From sequence record OK428535.1: 64,000 nucleotides of DNA; one strand, 5' to 3'. Position 1 is the first letter of the stretch. Each line of letters opens with the position of its first letter. Shown here piece by piece: positions 10,166 through 21,876 of the stretch. The DNA comes from Escherichia phage vB_EcoM_Lh1B. Under the pieces are notes generated by a model that saw only the letters and a program-made list of their open reading frames with translations, searched no databases and was not told the DNA's origin. Both the position numbers and the translations under genes were made by a program.

Positions 10166-10266
10166 TTGAAGGTATCGTATTAACCGGTATTGCACTGTGG
10201 TTGATTCGTGGTGCCTGGGGTTGGATTATCCGCACGAAAGGATGGGCGTTCCATGGCAACACGTAA
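10162..10266 (+). CDS. tiny membrane peptide (34 aa)
   Basis: ATGA overlap with previous stop; translates MIEGIVLTGIALWLIRGAWGWIIRTKGWAFHGNT; below ORF-track size cutoff. Confidence 0.3.
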   Translation: MIEGIVLTGIALWLIRGAWGWIIRTKGWAFHGNT

Positions 10267-10444
10267 ACCACGTCGCTTAAAATCTTGGGNGGTTGTGGTA
10301 ATGCACACTGTAGTGTTGCTGGGTNTTTTCTTGTCTCGTGCCACNCCTGCCTTTTGGGGCTTAGTTGTTTTGGTGTTCTTAGAAGGGGTTTACTTCGGTA
10401 ATCTGTGGAGCAAGCCCCCCGNGTTTAAGGGACCCGGCTTATGA
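10253..10444 (+). CDS. small membrane peptide (63 aa)
   Basis: ATG 10253 within track ORF 10208-10444; MATRKPRRLKSW then hydrophobic stretch; n-masked codons. Confidence 0.3.
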   Translation: MATRKPRRLKSWXVVVMHTVVLLGXFLSRAXPAFWGLVVLVFLEGVYFGNLWSKPPXFKGPGL

Positions 10445-10964: not shown

Positions 10965-11110
10965 TTATAGACACGGTTCCGATAGAGAACTGGTCTTCAC
11001 CTCTGGCGGTATACACCGCTTAAGTTTACCGGTAAACTTAAGAAAACACAAACCCAATTCTTCGTTACTCNCTTTCATCGCAGGTGAAAGCTCACTTAGG
11101 AATTCAGCTC

Positions 11111-11599
11111 ATGGCCGAAATTGTCATTCTTTCCTCATCCTCAGATTTAACGGAAGCACAAAATAAACAGCTGTTGGGGCTGCATTATAAATTTCTGAAC
11201 CACCAACGTACCATACTCCATATCGAAAAAGGTGAGATTCCGAACCTCACTCTGGAGAAACTGTTGGCGGGGAACCGTGCTTGTGTTGCTCTGGAAGGGG
11301 GTACCCCTGTTGGTTACTGTTTGTATCGCGTAATCGCTGGGGTTCTGAAGATTCGTACGATGTTCGTGTCTGAAATGGCACGCCGTCGTAAAACGATGAC
11401 GCAGATTTTTGATGCGCTTGATGTGAATGNGCAGTTCACCAGTGCGCATGGGGGAATATACGCTTGCCAGGAAGCTGGTATTGCGTTCTTTACCNCTCGC
11501 GGTTTTGACAAGACCGTCTCTACAGACGGACAATGGCTTGAATTTAAGAAGCAGGTTCTTGCGGAAGCAGATGAACCTTTAAGGACTGCGGTAGCATAG
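11111..11599 (+). CDS. possible GNAT-family acetyltransferase (weak)
   Basis: Start set to ATG 11111 (AGGAA upstream); ...GTPVGYCLYRV...MFVSEMARRRKTMTQIFDAL...ACQEAGIAFFT.RGF resembles GNAT core and C-terminal motif only loosely. Confidence 0.4.
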   Translation: MAEIVILSSSSDLTEAQNKQLLGLHYKFLNHQRTILHIEKGEIPNLTLEKLLAGNRACVALEGGTPVGYCLYRVIAGVLKIRTMFVSEMARRRKTMTQIFDALDVNXQFTSAHGGIYACQEAGIAFFTXRGFDKTVSTDGQWLEFKKQVLAEADEPLRTAVA

Positions 11600-11670
11600 T
11601 CCTGTTTTAGCACTCCTTACGATTATGCCTCACTATGAGTGGGGTATTTTTTACGCGAGGAGTGCTATTT

Positions 11671-11880
11671 ATGTTTCACCGTCCCGGGTTTTCAGCTTTA
11701 AACACCGATGTCTGTTGGGCTGAGTACGAGCGGGTGAAGGAGTTCTTACCCGTAAATCCTAAACACATCAACGTGGGTACTATCGGGCGTGTTGCGTTCG
11801 ATGACACTCCGCTGAGTACGTGTATTAAAGCTGCGCTTGGTACGCTGCCGGCGTCTATAGTGTTTGAGGAATTAAAATGA
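11671..11880 (+). CDS. hypothetical protein (69 aa)
   Basis: ATG 11671 with GCGAGGAG upstream within track ORF 11635-11880. Confidence 0.4.
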   Translation: MFHRPGFSALNTDVCWAEYERVKEFLPVNPKHINVGTIGRVAFDDTPLSTCIKAALGTLPASIVFEELK

Positions 11881-12395
11881 CGGACATTCGTGTTGACATA
11901 TATGGGGAAATTCATACCACGGCCGATCGTAATCGTGTTGAATGGGCTATCATCGATAACCATCGGAAAAAACCATACGATTTTTTACTGTGTGAAGAAC
12001 TGGGGCCGTATGAACATCACACTGCAAAAGCGCAAGATAAGGCATTAAAGGAGAAGATGTACTCTATTGGACCCATGGGGCTGGAGTTGGCTAAGAAACT
12101 CGGCATCCCTGCTATTGGGATCGATGACTGGAGCGACGCAACCTACGCTAAAGATATCAAGGATAAAAAGGGAATGGCTGTAAACTTTAGCCGTTCTTTT
12201 TATATTNGTGAAACTAAAATGGTTGCAAAAATTAAAAAGTATATGGCAAAAGGGCGTTGTGCTGTTATGCTTGGCGACTCACACTTGCGCACCACGAAAA
12301 CTAAAGAGCTTGGTGATGCGTCCCTTATCTGGGAAACGTTTAAGGATAATCCTGAAGTGAAGTTTCACAGGAGCCCTAAACGCGAGATTGATTAA
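11877..12395 (+). CDS. hypothetical protein (172 aa)
   Basis: ORF track; ATGA overlap with upstream stop. Confidence 0.6.
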   Translation: MTDIRVDIYGEIHTTADRNRVEWAIIDNHRKKPYDFLLCEELGPYEHHTAKAQDKALKEKMYSIGPMGLELAKKLGIPAIGIDDWSDATYAKDIKDKKGMAVNFSRSFYIXETKMVAKIKKYMAKGRCAVMLGDSHLRTTKTKELGDASLIWETFKDNPEVKFHRSPKREID

Positions 12396-12413
12396 ATCTA
12401 AAGGAGCATTAAA

Positions 12414-12836
12414 ATGGTTACCGCTATTCGCGAAACAAAATCACTATACGATCATTTATCAGAAGAAGAAACAGCCTTATTCTACGACCTGTTACCTGAA
12501 ACCAAAGCAAATGTTCAGTGGTGGTTACGTTTAGCGCTACGTGATAAAGTTGGGGAAACGCCGGTTAGTATTCTCGCACACACGTTGGACATGACACCCA
12601 TGATTGAAATCGCGATTACCCGCCCTAAATTCTGGCGACCTGGTATGGTGCGTGAGGCGTATCTACTCCAACGCTTAGGTGTTGACCCGGAGAAGTGTTG
12701 GCGTAAGATGGACGACCATCGCTACCGTGAAGAAATTACGAATAGCCTCAACACTATGTTGGCAATGAAACGACTCGGTATCGAANACGAAGGTTTCGAG
12801 TCTGCGGTGCAAGCGTGGGTGAGAAGGAATAGCTAA
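12414..12836 (+). CDS. hypothetical protein (140 aa)
   Basis: AAGGAGCATTAAAATG start context. Confidence 0.6.
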   Translation: MVTAIRETKSLYDHLSEEETALFYDLLPETKANVQWWLRLALRDKVGETPVSILAHTLDMTPMIEIAITRPKFWRPGMVREAYLLQRLGVDPEKCWRKMDDHRYREEITNSLNTMLAMKRLGIEXEGFESAVQAWVRRNS

Positions 12837-13085
12837 ATGCAAAAAACAATCATCGGAATAATGGTTAGTTCTTTCTGTGGTTTCCCTACCCCGCAGACAG
12901 AACCCCAATATTTGGGCGCAGGCAAACCTGATCCGGAAGTCCGTAAGTTGCGCGAAGAAGCAAAAGCCAGAGTTCTTACTGAGCTGGAATCGTTGCTTCA
13001 GTCTCCGGTTATTTCACAATGGGGTATGGCAATAGATGTCACTCGAACTGATCGACGAGGCTATTATCTCCCACGACCTGTTTAA
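12837..13085 (+). CDS. hypothetical protein (82 aa)
   Basis: ORF track; 3' end overlaps macrodomain gene start by about 50 nt, so uncertain. Confidence 0.35.
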   Translation: MQKTIIGIMVSSFCGFPTPQTEPQYLGAGKPDPEVRKLREEAKARVLTELESLLQSPVISQWGMAIDVTRTDRRGYYLPRPV

Positions 13086-13536
13086 CGCGCCTGAGCGCTT
13101 CAAGGTCGTTACAGTTAACTGTGTTGGTGCAATGGGAAGGGGCATTGCCTTGGCGTGCCGAGAACGCTTCCCATCGCTTTATAATGACTATCGCCAGAAA
13201 TGTCGTAAAGAGCAAATCGTTATCGGTGAGGTCTATTGTTATCCTGAGGAAGGGGTAATACTCCTTCCTACTAAAACCCATTTTCGCTATAAATCGCAGA
13301 TTTACTATGTCACGTCCGGCATTGATGCGCTGGCGCGACTAGGGGAAGACTTAGAAGGAGGGATTGCGATACCNCCCCTAGGGATGGCTAACGGTTGGTT
13401 ACGTTACCATGAGCGATTGGAAATCTTTATACACTTACAGAAACGACTACAGCACACGGAGCAGACTTATCGATTCTATTTACCAGACACCCTGCTGAGG
13501 GAAGCAGAGAAAATCATCCCAAAAAGTTTCAAATAG
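13036..13536 (+). CDS. macrodomain protein, TARG1/DarG-like
   Basis: DLFNAPERFKVVTVNCVGAMGRGIALACRERFP...IGEVYCYPEEGVILLPTK...GGIAI.PLGMANGWL lines up by eye with the TARG1-type block DLFxCP...C....RMGAGIA...FKKKF...GEV...TK...P.IGCG. Confidence 0.65.
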   Translation: MSLELIDEAIISHDLFNAPERFKVVTVNCVGAMGRGIALACRERFPSLYNDYRQKCRKEQIVIGEVYCYPEEGVILLPTKTHFRYKSQIYYVTSGIDALARLGEDLEGGIAIXPLGMANGWLRYHERLEIFIHLQKRLQHTEQTYRFYLPDTLLREAEKIIPKSFK

Positions 13537-13559
13537 ATATTATTATCAGGGCACATTAC
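13533..13559 (+). promoter_or_regulatory. class A upstream motif, divergent copy
   Basis: ATAGATATTATTATCAGGGCACATTAC resembles ATAGATATTATCTACAGGGAC at 22623. Confidence 0.35.
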
Positions 13560-13635
13560 AAAGGAGCACAATGCCGTCCGCGCCGTCTTCCCGGATTGGG
13601 AACGGAAAAGTATAAATCCGTTTGGAGATACATCC

Positions 13636-14358
13636 ATGTTTCNCACCATTTTATTTCTTCTGGTAGCAGTGACCACATTCAACAGCAACGCTTCTTACCA
13701 GACCACCAGTAACAAACACCAAAAAGAATTCGTCCTTATCCAGGACCAGTTCAATGAGATTAAACCTCTCATCGTCACCGCATCTCGAAAACAAGGCGTA
13801 CATGCCGGGATGCTCGCGACCACCATTTATCGTGAATCCCGTTTTAATAAAAACGTGGGTAAGAATAAATCGAGCAGTGCTAGTAGTGTTGTCCAAATGA
13901 CGACAGGCACTAAACGCTCCATGATACGTCTGTATGGGAAACAACTTAACATCCCAAAGAATGCGGACCTTAATAAACCGAAGTATGCTGTACAGCTTGC
14001 TGCCGTTTACATGAAACACATCGAGGATCATCTGACAAAACAACTCAAACGCAAGCCGAGCACAGCCGAAATCGCTTTAGGCTATCGCTTCGGTGAGGGT
14101 GCCGCTGTTGCGATGATTAAAAAGAAATCACCGGTCGGGAAACGCTGGATGGCNNGCNACNGAAAAGACGCAGCATTCTACGGTGCGAAAATGACACCAC
14201 CGAAAGNTGAAANACNNCNGNTTNNNTTTGNGNAGGNAGNCCANGNCCAACGNGTCGCCGAACTTCAGAAAATCTGGGATACGCTGTACACCAAAATATC
14301 ACCTGCGGCCGGTACATTACTGGCAAATAACACTATCATGAAAGGAGCATTGCTATGA
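13636..14358 (+). CDS. lytic transglycosylase-like protein with N-terminal hydrophobic signal/anchor
   Basis: Hydrophobic N-terminus MF.TILFLLVAVTTF; YRESRFN...SSASSVVQMT...AAVYM resembles the SLT E-S motif block; GGAGA upstream; C-terminal third n-masked. Confidence 0.55.
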   Translation: MFXTILFLLVAVTTFNSNASYQTTSNKHQKEFVLIQDQFNEIKPLIVTASRKQGVHAGMLATTIYRESRFNKNVGKNKSSSASSVVQMTTGTKRSMIRLYGKQLNIPKNADLNKPKYAVQLAAVYMKHIEDHLTKQLKRKPSTAEIALGYRFGEGAAVAMIKKKSPVGKRWMXXXXKDAAFYGAKMTPPKXEXXXXXFXXXXXXQXVAELQKIWDTLYTKISPAAGTLLANNTIMKGALL

Positions 14359-14948
14359 CACTCGTAACACGCCCCTGGTATCCAGGTCTTAAAACAGCCG
14401 NACAAATCACCGCCAAAGACGTTTACGAACTGATTCGCGCGGGTGCGGAACACGTTCAAACCAATCCGAACTACGTTGAGCGTCCTATCGGTGAAGTCGA
14501 TGGGGAAGCTGTCGAAGCACCTGTCTACGTTGAGTACGGCGAATGGTTCGCAGAGAACCACGGTTTCTACGACGCGTTAAACGCGGCGTTTGGTGATGAC
14601 GAAGACGAAGGTATCGAATTCGACTGGAACGTTAATCTGGCGCTGATGTGGATTTGTGGTTTACGTCCAGCAATTAACGAAACCGAAGCAGGCTTCGTGC
14701 TGACGTGGCGACAGTCGGCGGGTTACGATAAAGAACTCGACTTCAAACAGGCGTATATGGATGTGTCGATTGCACTGCAGAAACTGTTCTTCGGCGATCG
14801 TGCTTTCTGCCAGCTCAGCTGGTTGACCATCCTGGAAAAACTGGCAACGTGCCACAAACTGTGGCGAGCAGAAGATGCCCCAGAACATCTTTTCGTGCTC
14901 GAATATGCAGTGGTACCGAACCAGCCGTTCTTTGAGGCCGAAGCGTAA
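14355..14948 (+). CDS. hypothetical protein (197 aa)
   Basis: ATGA overlap with upstream stop; followed by terminator. Confidence 0.65.
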   Translation: MTLVTRPWYPGLKTAXQITAKDVYELIRAGAEHVQTNPNYVERPIGEVDGEAVEAPVYVEYGEWFAENHGFYDALNAAFGDDEDEGIEFDWNVNLALMWICGLRPAINETEAGFVLTWRQSAGYDKELDFKQAYMDVSIALQKLFFGDRAFCQLSWLTILEKLATCHKLWRAEDAPEHLFVLEYAVVPNQPFFEAEA

Positions 14949-14953
14949 TTAAC

Positions 14954-14987
14954 GGTCAGACCTTCGGGTCTGACCNCCTTTTATTTA
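14954..14987 (+). terminator. intrinsic terminator
   Basis: GGTCAGACC-TTCG-GGTCTGACC hairpin followed by CCTTTTATTT. Confidence 0.75.
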
Positions 14988-14999
14988 ATTCTTGGGTGT

Positions 15000-15266
15000 G
15001 TGTTCGTGAAACGTTTAATAAATATTCTCTACTGGATGGAGAAACGCTATAGCCACAACATTCCGATGATGTATAGTTTGTTATTCTCTACGGTAATGTT
15101 GGTGATCGGTGCGATTGTCGCGCATCTGATGGAACTCACGTCTCCATGGGCGCAACTCTTTCTTACCATCTGGATGTTGTTCTCAGGCTACCACATACGT
15201 GGTTTCATAACCCGATTCTTTCGCTGGCGTAGTACCTGGCACGTCTTTAATTCCGACCGTAACTAG
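15000..15266 (+). CDS. small membrane protein (start uncertain)
   Basis: Two hydrophobic helices (LLFSTVMLVIGAIVAHL; LFLTIWMLFSGY); GTG start in track, alternative internal ATG. Confidence 0.4.
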   Translation: MFVKRLINILYWMEKRYSHNIPMMYSLLFSTVMLVIGAIVAHLMELTSPWAQLFLTIWMLFSGYHIRGFITRFFRWRSTWHVFNSDRN

Positions 15267-15326
15267 TTTTTTACAGCAGTAACTAATCATCTGAAAATAC
15301 CATTGACTTTTATAAGGACTATTAAC

Positions 15327-16460
15327 ATGCAATTTCCAATTTCCGTAATCGAAGATATGGCTCGTGTAGTACGTGACCGTGCGTATGTGCTTAGCTACGA
15401 AGGTATTCGTGCATATTCAGAAGCTCTGATTGCACAACACGTCACTGGCACCGGTGTTATCAACCCGGATCTTTACAATGCGCTGGTCGATAACAATGTG
15501 GAGGCTTATCTGCCGCTGCCGCACCTGCGTAATAAGTTGTGCCTTTCTTCTCAAACTCTTCAGTTTGATAACCTGCCGCCACTGAAATATTCGCCAGATG
15601 ACCGTTGGGGAAGTATGCTGGGCGTAGCTTTCCAAAATTGCCACGCGCCTTATAACTGGTCTATTCTCGTTGAAGGTGTTGATGGTGTCTGGTATGCCAT
15701 TGCACATTCTGACGGATTCTTCTTCGAACCAGGTGAGTTGATTAAACCAGTAAGTGCCCCACAAGGTCGTGCTAAGGTTGGGCATTGTTACATTGAATTG
15801 ACTCATGTCCAGTGGACTATCGAAGACTGGCGTGCTGCCTCCGTTATCTTCGGTGACGGTAAACCACACTCAGTTACTTTCGAGCGTTGTGAAGCAGAGC
15901 ATGTTGAAGAGACTGACAATGACGAAGTGGGAGATCGTTACGCGCCGCTGGAAGAGTGTCGTAACATCGNNAACANCNACTGGGTGAAAGTCTTTACGGC
16001 CAACCCCGGTTTCCGTGGCCANACNATCAACCCCGGNGAAGNAACCTGGGAAGGTTTCGTACAACTCGCAGATAAACTCGGTTATGACGTGTGGGATTAT
16101 ACCTACAAACGTCCATACCCGAATGCGTCGGAAGATGAAGACCACGATGAAATCATTCTGGAAAACCTGGCTGATATCGAAAACGTGTTCATCGATGATG
16201 AAATCTTCATCACCCTCGGCATTGAGCGTCCGAAATCAACCGCATATCCGGTATCGGTTGCCAGCGTTATTCAGGAACTGGGCAAGATGCAGGAGCAGAC
16301 CGTCGAAGTGAAAATCGACGAAGAGCAAATGCATATCGTTGCACAGGTACAGAAAACTCTGAACCTGGATAAACTGTACGCGGAAATCCGCAAGCAGCCG
16401 AAAAAGAAACGTACTGCTGCCACAATCAAAGCAATGATGCGTGAAATTATCGGCAAGTAA
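15327..16460 (+). CDS. hypothetical protein (378 aa)
   Basis: Start set to ATG 15327 (TAAGGACT upstream); Lys-rich C-terminus; followed by bidirectional terminator. Confidence 0.7.
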   Translation: MQFPISVIEDMARVVRDRAYVLSYEGIRAYSEALIAQHVTGTGVINPDLYNALVDNNVEAYLPLPHLRNKLCLSSQTLQFDNLPPLKYSPDDRWGSMLGVAFQNCHAPYNWSILVEGVDGVWYAIAHSDGFFFEPGELIKPVSAPQGRAKVGHCYIELTHVQWTIEDWRAASVIFGDGKPHSVTFERCEAEHVEETDNDEVGDRYAPLEECRNIXNXXWVKVFTANPGFRGXXINPXEXTWEGFVQLADKLGYDVWDYTYKRPYPNASEDEDHDEIILENLADIENVFIDDEIFITLGIERPKSTAYPVSVASVIQELGKMQEQTVEVKIDEEQMHIVAQVQKTLNLDKLYAEIRKQPKKKRTAATIKAMMREIIGK

Positions 16461-20362: not shown

Positions 20363-21876
20363 TGAAAGACGTCGACGTAGCGGTTATTTATACCGATGGT
20401 AGTCATACTGAGTCCCCGAAAGGTTCGGGGGCTGGTATTCATGGTTATTTATTCAACAACGGAGATTTGGAAGACAGTCAGGCTTATAGCCATCCGGGTG
20501 TTTCANAANGGATTACCACTGTTGGATANAAAAAAGNGCCGCAGGNTGNGAAGTGTCCGGNGTTGCCGGACACCGTTNAATTTNTNGACGCCGTTNTTCC
20601 CGTTCCNAAANAGTTNTNCNCAGATGTGGGNGNGTTAATCNCCTTCATCACGTTNTTTGAGAACGCGCCCTTCCGCGCGAAGAACTATATCATCTACGTG
20701 GATGCCAGTTACGTTGTAAACACTTTTAACGAGTGGATAGACGGCTGGCATAAACGTGGTTGGGTTCGTGCTGACGGTACTCCGCTGGCGAACAAAGAAC
20801 TTATTGTTCGTATCTGGGAAATCAAACAGCAGATGAAAAAAGAAGGACGGGGTGTTAAGGTTATCAAAATCAAAGGACACTCCGGCCACTACGGTAACGA
20901 CCGGGCGGACGAATTGGCTAGAAAAGGTTCAGCCATCACAGCGACCAACGACGGCGTTCCATATCAGCCGTACTGGTCGAAGGATGAGTTGCCTGCATCC
21001 GCGGAACCCGAGCCCATCGCCGCTGGGATGAACCTTGCGGCATATCCGCCTATTTGTACGGTTAAATATTGCTATCCGTTGGTGAACGAGGACCATCCTA
21101 CTGTAAAAGTGAAAGATGAAACTTTCTATTACATGTTTGGTGGCAACCATGCAAAGAACAAGGACGACTTGGTGTTTATTGGGAAAATGATTCCTGATGC
21201 ACACTTTTCCGTAATGTTCACTAAACAACCGTGGGATAACATCTACACGATTGTAAATACCCACGCCGCCCTGGCATGGAAAGATACACCGAAGATGCGG
21301 CAGTATGATCCAATCGGTGTTGTTAACAATGAGTTCGTTAAACGTAAGAAGTTCGTTGATGTGGCAGGTGATGGATTACCGGCAGACAAGATGCATTTCA
21401 GTGGAGAAGATTCCAATGTCTGGTTCTTTGAAGACCTGGCCATCTCCAGAATGCTTCGCCCGCCCTTATTGTCGTACCGTGCGCTGGATATTCGTGATGA
21501 ACTCGCTACAACGTTGCGAGATGTTCTGCATCAGGAAAAGGGTTACGTCTTAAACGACATTACCGACTTGCTATTCGACGACAAAGGTAAACCTGTCAAG
21601 GAATACTACCGTAGCGTCGATAAGTCAATAACGTTAAAGATTGACTTTCCGATGGGTAAACGACCTGTCTCGGTTATTTTGACTCGCGGTATCGATATTC
21701 CATCACGTACGGAAATCAACCGTATTAAAGAACCCGAAGGCCGTTATTACATCGCGGTGTGTCGTCCTGAAAAATACTACATCCGTTACTTCTTAATCTA
21801 TATCGGTAAAGAGTATCATGGGTTGTGGTGTGCGTATTACGCAAACCGTCGCATACTGCGAGAAGAAGAGGTGTAA
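20362..21876 (+). CDS. RNase HI domain protein with about 300-aa C-terminal extension
   Basis: N-terminal VAVIYTDGS...; WHKRGWVRADGTPLANKEL...VKVIKIKGHSGHYGNDRADELARKG aligns by eye with E. coli RNase HI WKKRGWKTADKKPVKNVDL...VKGHAGHPENERCDELAR; overlapping stop-start with exonuclease gene. Confidence 0.8.
   Translation: MKDVDVAVIYTDGSHTESPKGSGAGIHGYLFNNGDLEDSQAYSHPGVSXXITTVGXKKXPQXXKCPXLPDTVXFXDAVXPVXKXXXXDVXXLIXFITXFENAPFRAKNYIIYVDASYVVNTFNEWIDGWHKRGWVRADGTPLANKELIVRIWEIKQQMKKEGRGVKVIKIKGHSGHYGNDRADELARKGSAITATNDGVPYQPYWSKDELPASAEPEPIAAGMNLAAYPPICTVKYCYPLVNEDHPTVKVKDETFYYMFGGNHAKNKDDLVFIGKMIPDAHFSVMFTKQPWDNIYTIVNTHAALAWKDTPKMRQYDPIGVVNNEFVKRKKFVDVAGDGLPADKMHFSGEDSNVWFFEDLAISRMLRPPLLSYRALDIRDELATTLRDVLHQEKGYVLNDITDLLFDDKGKPVKEYYRSVDKSITLKIDFPMGKRPVSVILTRGIDIPSRTEINRIKEPEGRYYIAVCRPEKYYIRYFLIYIGKEYHGLWCAYYANRRILREEEV

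Follow-up and report, generated by a model that had tools for sequence, protein, structure and literature searches.

The window analysed here is a 64,000-nucleotide stretch of the genome of Escherichia phage vB_EcoM_Lh1B (OK428535.1). In the ORF listing of the window, an ATG-started ORF extends from 13036 to 13536 on the + strand and encodes 166 amino acids plus a stop codon; we refer to it as the macro gene and to its product as the macro protein. Position, strand and quoted sequence were exactly as given in the original prediction, which had called the product a free-standing TARG1/DarG-like macrodomain. The GC content of the gene is 0.476, which matches its surroundings, and there is thus no horizontal-transfer signature. 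A masked base (N) at 13374 makes residue 113 of the macro protein an X; this residue is Pro in all of the homologues aligned. Scattered and clustered N bases were also noted at about 10200-10400, about 14150-14260 and about 15950-16030, and the N bases give rise to X residues in several ORFs, including a run inside the SLT transglycosylase ORF.

The macro gene is flanked by the SLT transglycosylase gene (13636..14358) and, about 1.4 kb upstream, by a gene for a GNAT acetyltransferase (11084..11599, + strand) that was recognized by PHROG 3810 (E 3e-41) and weakly by Pfam. The remaining flanks consist of four ORFs of unknown function and further unknowns past the transglycosylase. An 82-aa ORF (12837..13085, + strand; SPN3US gp071) extends 50 nt into the macro gene. 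This ORF has no Pfam or PHROG match and its position is occupied in Erwinia phage Asesino by a 247-nt intergenic gap; it may be a spurious ORF or one restricted to this lineage. No antisense or overlapping ORF with family support was found at the macro gene. Strong terminator-like hairpins with stems of 10 and 9 bp, each followed by a T-run, are present on the + strand at 11625-11647 and 14954-14975, respectively. Between the two hairpins lie seven co-directional ORFs, the macro gene and the SLT transglycosylase gene among them, and this block may constitute a transcription unit, although the arrangement is only suggestive. A sigma-70 promoter scan identified 7 candidates compared to 5.7 expected, no more than chance. 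SPN3US-like phages use their own RNA polymerases.

The GNAT gene lies at a similar distance from the macro gene in Asesino, and in Serratia phage Moabite a GNAT gene directly adjoins the macro gene. A conserved GNAT partner was considered and rejected, as the two GNATs have no detectable similarity (BLASTP E 3.7) and the neighbours of the gene in PhiKZ and Goslar do not include a GNAT. We judge the nearness of the GNAT gene to be coincidental or lineage-specific. A hidden toxin partner was also rejected, as searches with Pfam and PHROGs identified no ART or DarT domain in the nine flanking ORFs, and none is annotated over ~50 kb of the SPN3US RefSeq equivalent. Hence, the description of the gene as free-standing, with no cognate toxin nearby, held up. 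The same Pfam and PHROG searches of the flanking ORFs identified no RNA ligase or KptA-type partner adjacent to the macro gene.

A megablast search with nucleotides 11000-16000 retrieved 39 phage records, of which the best were SPN3US-like Seoulvirus jumbo phages (97-98% identity) that infect Salmonella, E. coli and Proteus. SPN3US gp244 is a diverged chimallin, and lysates of infected cells contained a square lattice resembling the nuclear shell (PMC9365700). A homologue of PhiPA3 gp63 is likewise encoded by SPN3US (PMC10643120); PhiPA3 gp63 is the counterpart of the nuclear importer Imp1, alias PicA (bioRxiv 10.1101/2024.03.27.586873). On the basis of this similarity we assign the phage to the SPN3US-like (Seoulvirus) nucleus-forming jumbo phages, i.e. 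the chimalliviruses. The ORF is intact and the macro protein is at least 97.6% conserved at the protein level in 22 SPN3US-like genomes. Its SPN3US counterpart, gp070 (YP_009153490.1), carries the RefSeq label 'macro domain-containing protein'; other records call this protein 'hypothetical', 'phosphatase' or 'protein-ADP-ribosylation protein', and many in GenBank use 'Appr-1-p processing protein'. In GenBank records LR535904, LR535905, LR535911, LR535917 and those of related SPFM phages, the macro region appears as dozens of short matching pieces and the macro proteins are shortened to 111-152 aa. We suspect that these fragments are due to sequence-quality problems of the assemblies rather than to biology.

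Family searches with the macro protein pointed to DarG. The Pfam Macro model (PF01661) matched residues 25-68 only and scored 19 bits, below its gathering score of 22. Several 62%-identical homologues carry PF01661 in precomputed tables, and the sub-threshold score reflects limited sensitivity of the model and is not evidence against a macrodomain fold. PHROG 335, labelled 'phosphatase', matched at E 1e-27. The PADLOC DarG model matched at E 1.1e-30, and PhiKZ gp104 and Asesino gp217 scored similarly with this model. NCBIfam antitoxin_DarG matched at E 6e-29 with 101.4 bits, compared to an equivalog cutoff of 250, and the alignment covered model positions 7-150 of 338; judged by these positions, the partial match is to the macrodomain half of DarG alone. 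In a phmmer search of the PDB the best matches were DarG macrodomains, those of M. tuberculosis (5M3I, E 1.9e-19) and T. aquaticus (5M31/5M3E, E 8e-18), and the Thermosipho DarTG fusion (7OMU) was matched at E 1.2e-9. With a profile built from 29 homologues these values improved to E 7.8e-40 (5M3I), 2.6e-35 (5M31/5M3E) and 9.7e-29 (7OMU), while human TARG1 was matched by the same profile at just E 9e-5.

An exhaustive HMMER scan of 1.84 billion representatives yielded 3,924 relatives at E<=1e-3, which are a mix of free-standing proteins of ~150 aa and proteins of ~340 aa. Several of the ~340-aa relatives pass the curated DarG cutoff (P0066 with 400 bits, P0069 and P0071), the full-length relatives scoring 254-400 bits with NCBIfam antitoxin_DarG. 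Bona fide full-length DarG proteins are therefore among the nearest bacterial relatives of the macro protein.

Structure prediction gave the same assignment. The AF2 model, built on a 28-sequence alignment that did not contain the PhiKZ row, had a pLDDT of 93.1 and a pTM of 0.89, and its strands and helices alternate. When this model was compared to the PDB with Foldseek, ranks 1-4 were all DarG macrodomains (5M31 and 5M3E from T. aquaticus, and 5M3I from M. tuberculosis), with E values of 2e-12 to 4e-11, TM scores of 0.75-0.83 and rmsd values of 2.0-2.6 A; the best of these had TM 0.77/0.83 and an rmsd of 2.0 A. TARG1 followed after DarG (E 4e-7, TM 0.68/0.76), and alphavirus macrodomains were next. 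At E<=1e-3 the PDB yielded 138 matches, of which the best 50 were almost all macrodomains. From these data the macro protein is confidently predicted to be a macrodomain, i.e. an alpha/beta/alpha fold of three layers that has a central, mixed beta-sheet and a cleft for ADP-ribose, and no other macrodomain class is as close to it as that of DarG.

We then considered the predicted active site. Throughout the family, residues T26, N28, G31, M33, G34, G36, A38, Y52, T79, K80, G116 and G120 do not vary; for N28, K80 and both glycine-rich loops this holds across 28-29 homologues with identities as low as 33%. The motif blocks that had been matched by eye to TARG1 correspond to aligned columns. Asn28 (codon AAC, 13117..13119, + strand) aligns with N22 of T. 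aquaticus DarG and N23 of PhiKZ AdfM, whereas TARG1 has Ser at this position. The first glycine-rich loop (G31-A-M-G-R-G36, 13126..13143, + strand), which is predicted to bind the phosphates of ADP-ribose, contains the invariant residues G31, M33, G34 and G36. Lys80 (codon AAA, 13273..13275, + strand) is part of a PTK motif and is invariant in every aligned sequence; it corresponds to catalytic K80 of DarG and to the Lys of the TARG1 TKK motif. The second glycine-rich loop comprises residues 113-122 (X/P-P-L-G-M-A-N-G-W-L, 13372..13401, + strand), and the masked base at 13374 falls within its codons. Of its two invariant glycines, G116 and G120, the latter occupies the column of the TARG1 catalytic Asp. 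We take the catalytic dyad of human TARG1/OARD1 to be K84/D125. The residue after G120, Trp121, hardly varies in the SPN3US/Erwinia clade, and the corresponding residue is Gly in DarG and PhiKZ AdfM. The roles of DarG residues N22 and K80 are as described previously, and an N23A mutant of PhiKZ AdfM had reduced activity (PMC13309987). Because Asn28 is found where TARG1 has Ser, and Gly is found at the Asp column, the alignment argues that the macro protein has a DarG-type site with predicted catalytic residues Asn28 and Lys80, rather than a TARG1-type Lys/Asp dyad.

The C-terminal part of the macro protein consists of the last beta-strand (residues 145-149, Y-R-F-Y-L), a helix (residues 151-160) and a tail predicted with low confidence (together 13468..13533, + strand). 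The Pro that follows the strand forms a YLP motif that is present in Thermosipho DarG as well. Since the protein ends after this strand and short helix, it has no DarT-binding domain; neither this C-terminal domain nor the total length of ~340 aa typical of full-length DarG is found in the 166-aa macro protein.

Taken as a class, the protein thus resembles the macrodomain of the DarG2 antitoxin (T. aquaticus 5M31/5M3E, M. tuberculosis 5M3I and Thermosipho africanus 7OMU), with which it shares the Asn/Lys site and the glycine-rich loops. It differs from DarG2 in that it corresponds to the N-terminal half only, its gene has no darT neighbour, and its source is a phage instead of a bacterial defence island. 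Likeness to human TARG1/OARD1 (4J5Q-4J5S) extends to the broad macrodomain class, the overall fold and the catalytic Lys in a TK motif, but the sequence match is far weaker and the Asn28 and Asp columns differ as described above. TARG1 is a terminal ADP-ribose glycohydrolase that acts on protein Glu/Asp-ADPr and O-acetyl-ADPr. A TARG1-type assignment was rejected on two grounds: in the profile search TARG1 trailed DarG by 35 orders of magnitude, and the macro protein has Gly in place of the TARG1 catalytic Asp. The original prediction had placed the protein in a joint TARG1/DarG class; its DarG component is borne out by profile, PADLOC and fold, which point to DarG2, and its TARG1 component had to be abandoned.

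Macrodomain proteins of chimalliviruses were recently named AdfM (anti-DarT factor macro) by Morgan et al. (Cell Rep 2026), in a set that includes PhiKZ gp104, PhiPA3 gp108, Goslar gp83 and Asesino gp217 (PMC13309987). The macro protein is 68.7% identical to Asesino gp217 (YP_009290835.1) across all 166 residues. The two phages also have a common gene order, consisting of a gene for an SMC-domain protein, small genes, the acetyltransferase gene, small genes, the macro gene, the transglycosylase gene and, on the opposite strand, a virion structural protein gene. A tblastn search of phiKZ returned PHIKZ104 (gp104) itself at 35% identity (E 3e-24); the macro protein is about as distant from the assayed PhiKZ enzyme as it is from bacterial DarG. 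On account of the full-length identity and common gene order with Asesino gp217, sequence comparison identifies the macro gene as the orthologue of a published AdfM gene and as a homologue of PhiKZ gp104. Like other AdfM proteins, it is a free-standing DarG2-like macrodomain of ~160 aa from a nucleus-forming jumbo phage in which the Asn and Lys residues are kept. Differences from PhiKZ AdfM include the Trp at position 121 in place of Gly, the lack of a 12-residue insertion that precedes the second loop in PhiKZ, a longer C-terminal helix, and hosts that are Salmonella, E. coli and Proteus instead of Pseudomonas.

Several properties of AdfM have been established in other phages. PhiKZ AdfM removes DarT2-made ADP-ribose from an ssDNA oligonucleotide and rescues DarT2 toxicity, and deletion of its gene lowers the titre of PhiKZ by 3-6 logs on DarTG2 hosts; PhiPA3 behaves like PhiKZ in these genetic experiments (PMC13309987). 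Import into the phage nucleus was shown for the AdfM proteins of PhiKZ, PhiPA3 and Asesino, and localisation to the nucleus is the sole property shown for Asesino gp217 (PMC13309987). The same study stressed that importer and cargo co-evolve (PMC13309987), and nuclear import is therefore not transferable with certainty from another phage.

The most likely explanation for these results, and one that we consider probable, is that the macro protein is an AdfM-type counter-defence enzyme, i.e. a stand-alone DarG2 catalytic macrodomain that removes DarT2-made ADP-ribose from phage DNA. Activity of DarTG2 against phages has been documented in E. coli (PMC11825919, among others). On infection, DarT2, the toxin of this host toxin-antitoxin defence, places ADP-ribose on thymidines of single-stranded phage DNA, a modification that reduces DNA replication and blocks packaging. 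In the proposed mechanism, the two glycine-rich loops of the macro protein would bind the ADP-ribose moiety, and the Asn28/Lys80 site would hydrolyse the thymidine-ribose bond, thereby restoring unmodified DNA. As the macro protein has no DarT-binding domain, it would neutralise the mark enzymatically instead of sequestering the toxin. Moreover, because the phage is a nucleus-forming chimallivirus, import of the macro protein into the phage nucleus, the site of the replicating DNA, is probable. By analogy with the AdfM proteins described above, we infer that the macro protein is an active hydrolase, enters the phage nucleus and protects the phage from DarTG2 of Salmonella or E. coli hosts. In a PLSDB search of plasmids, DarG-like genes were mostly from Bacillus, Zymomonas and Rhizobium, and few were enterobacterial, a result with little bearing on how prevalent DarTG2 is in Salmonella. 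The expected target is the thymidine-ADP-ribose made by DarT2, not ADP-ribosylation in general. Of the two roles put forward in the original prediction, anti-DarT factor or general de-ADP-ribosylation factor, the AdfM homologues (PMC13309987) favour the first, specifically against DarT2, and the general role was not retained; overall, its interpretation of the gene as encoding a stand-alone anti-DarT macrodomain is supported.

Other readings of the macro protein were weighed against this one. The macrodomain superfamily acts on many ADP-ribose conjugates, and TARG1 and alphavirus macrodomains were also significant fold matches. Hence, the protein might be an active ADP-ribosylglycohydrolase with a substrate other than DarT2-modified DNA, such as ADP-ribosylated protein or RNA generated by host ART defences or toxins, or marks made by a phage-encoded ART; the clade-specific Trp121 in the active-site loop could also alter substrate range. 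We consider this unlikely, as DarG was at least 30 orders of magnitude ahead of every other class in profile E-value, an invariant Gly stands in place of the TARG1 catalytic Asp, the flanks and ~50 kb of the SPN3US counterpart contain no annotated ART, and bacterial DarG2 macrodomains, the closest match of the phage AdfMs, act only on ADP-ribosylated DNA (PMC13309987). A related proposal concerns the clade itself. The ~35% identity to the assayed enzyme, together with the clade-wide W121, suggests that AdfM proteins of SPN3US and Erwinia phages could differ from PhiKZ AdfM in substrate range. To us this is doubtful; possible targets might be a divergent enterobacterial DarT2, other nucleic-acid ADP-ribose linkages, or a new ADP-ribosylating defence of Salmonella or Erwinia.

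It is improbable that the macro protein processes soluble ADP-ribose derivatives, either as a Poa1p-like ADP-ribose-1''-phosphate phosphatase in RNA repair or as a degrader of a NAD-derived immune signal. Iyer et al. (2021) suggested a role of this kind for the Macro domains of jumbo phages (PMC7824862), and the 'phosphatase' label of PHROG 335 and the many 'Appr-1-p processing protein' labels in GenBank agree with it. However, these labels are legacy names applied to any macrodomain, not tests, and the homologous PhiKZ gp104 has a demonstrated role in DNA de-ADP-ribosylation. Weak partial matches to ADP-ribose 1''-phosphate phosphatase entries 6LFQ-6LFU were obtained, but they are marginal (E 0.003-0.14) and confined to residues 8-59, and the RNA ligase or KptA-type partner is absent from the adjacent ORFs. 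A Poa1p-like phosphatase was rejected on the grounds that no significant full-length similarity was found, only the marginal partial matches. That the protein binds ADP-ribose without catalysis (as a reader or sponge), or is a decaying remnant devoid of function, is the least plausible of these readings and in our view very improbable. The sub-threshold Pfam Macro score could be taken in its favour, as could the non-core status of the gene, a homologue of which is present in about half of the chimalliviruses (PMC13309987). Nevertheless, the invariance of the catalytic Asn, the Lys and both glycine-rich loops down to 33% identity, the intact ORF with its high protein conservation among SPN3US-like genomes, and the very confident AF2 model all argue against this reading.

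Our preferred reading, an AdfM-type enzyme directed against DarT2 marks, has a parallel in AdfN, an orphan phage copy of an antitoxin hydrolase that erases DarT marks from phage DNA (PMC11825919). AdfN has a NADAR fold that is unrelated to the macrodomain; it acts specifically on the guanosine-ADPr that DarT1 generates and is ineffective against DarTG2 (Johannesman et al., Nat Commun 2025; PMC11825919). Free-standing DarG-like macrodomains that are 31-35% identical to the macro protein are also encoded by small phages that do not form a nucleus, e.g. phiEco32-like podophages (EU330206.1, 34893-35246), Sashavirus (OZ035775.1, 40027-40377) and vB_EcoM_DE15 (NC_079184.1, 7893-8234). The AdfM study covered chimalliviruses only (PMC13309987), and by sequence these small-phage proteins could be further anti-DarT2 factors. 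A 62%-identical macro gene was found at 21143-21634 of PLSDB entry NZ_CP134650.1, a 222,441-bp 'plasmid' of Enterobacter ludwigii, which, judged by its size and the presence of this gene, may be a chimallivirus jumbo-phage genome in a carrier state that was deposited as a plasmid. Some 62-63%-identical homologues are likewise labelled as Salmonella enterica proteins and are located on contigs of 79-226 kb (P0014, P0017).

The AdfM family and its mechanism were already published in 2026, and the concept is not new. What AdfM reveals about these phages is that the protein shell of the nucleus gives their DNA incomplete protection from host enzymes, such that a dedicated repair enzyme is needed inside it. 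The SPN3US-like orthologue carries this view of AdfM beyond Pseudomonas phages to giant phages that infect Salmonella, E. coli and Proteus, some of them under consideration for biocontrol, and leads to the prediction that DarTG2-bearing strains would restrict mutants lacking the macro gene. It also corrects labels that are uninformative or misleading, namely 'hypothetical protein', 'phosphatase', 'Appr-1-p processing' and 'protein-ADP-ribosylation protein'. The residual interest lies in the enterobacterial AdfM clade and its active-site Trp. If the substrate range of this clade does differ, the related free-standing macrodomains encoded by phages without a nucleus would mark a broader anti-ADP-ribosylation repertoire.
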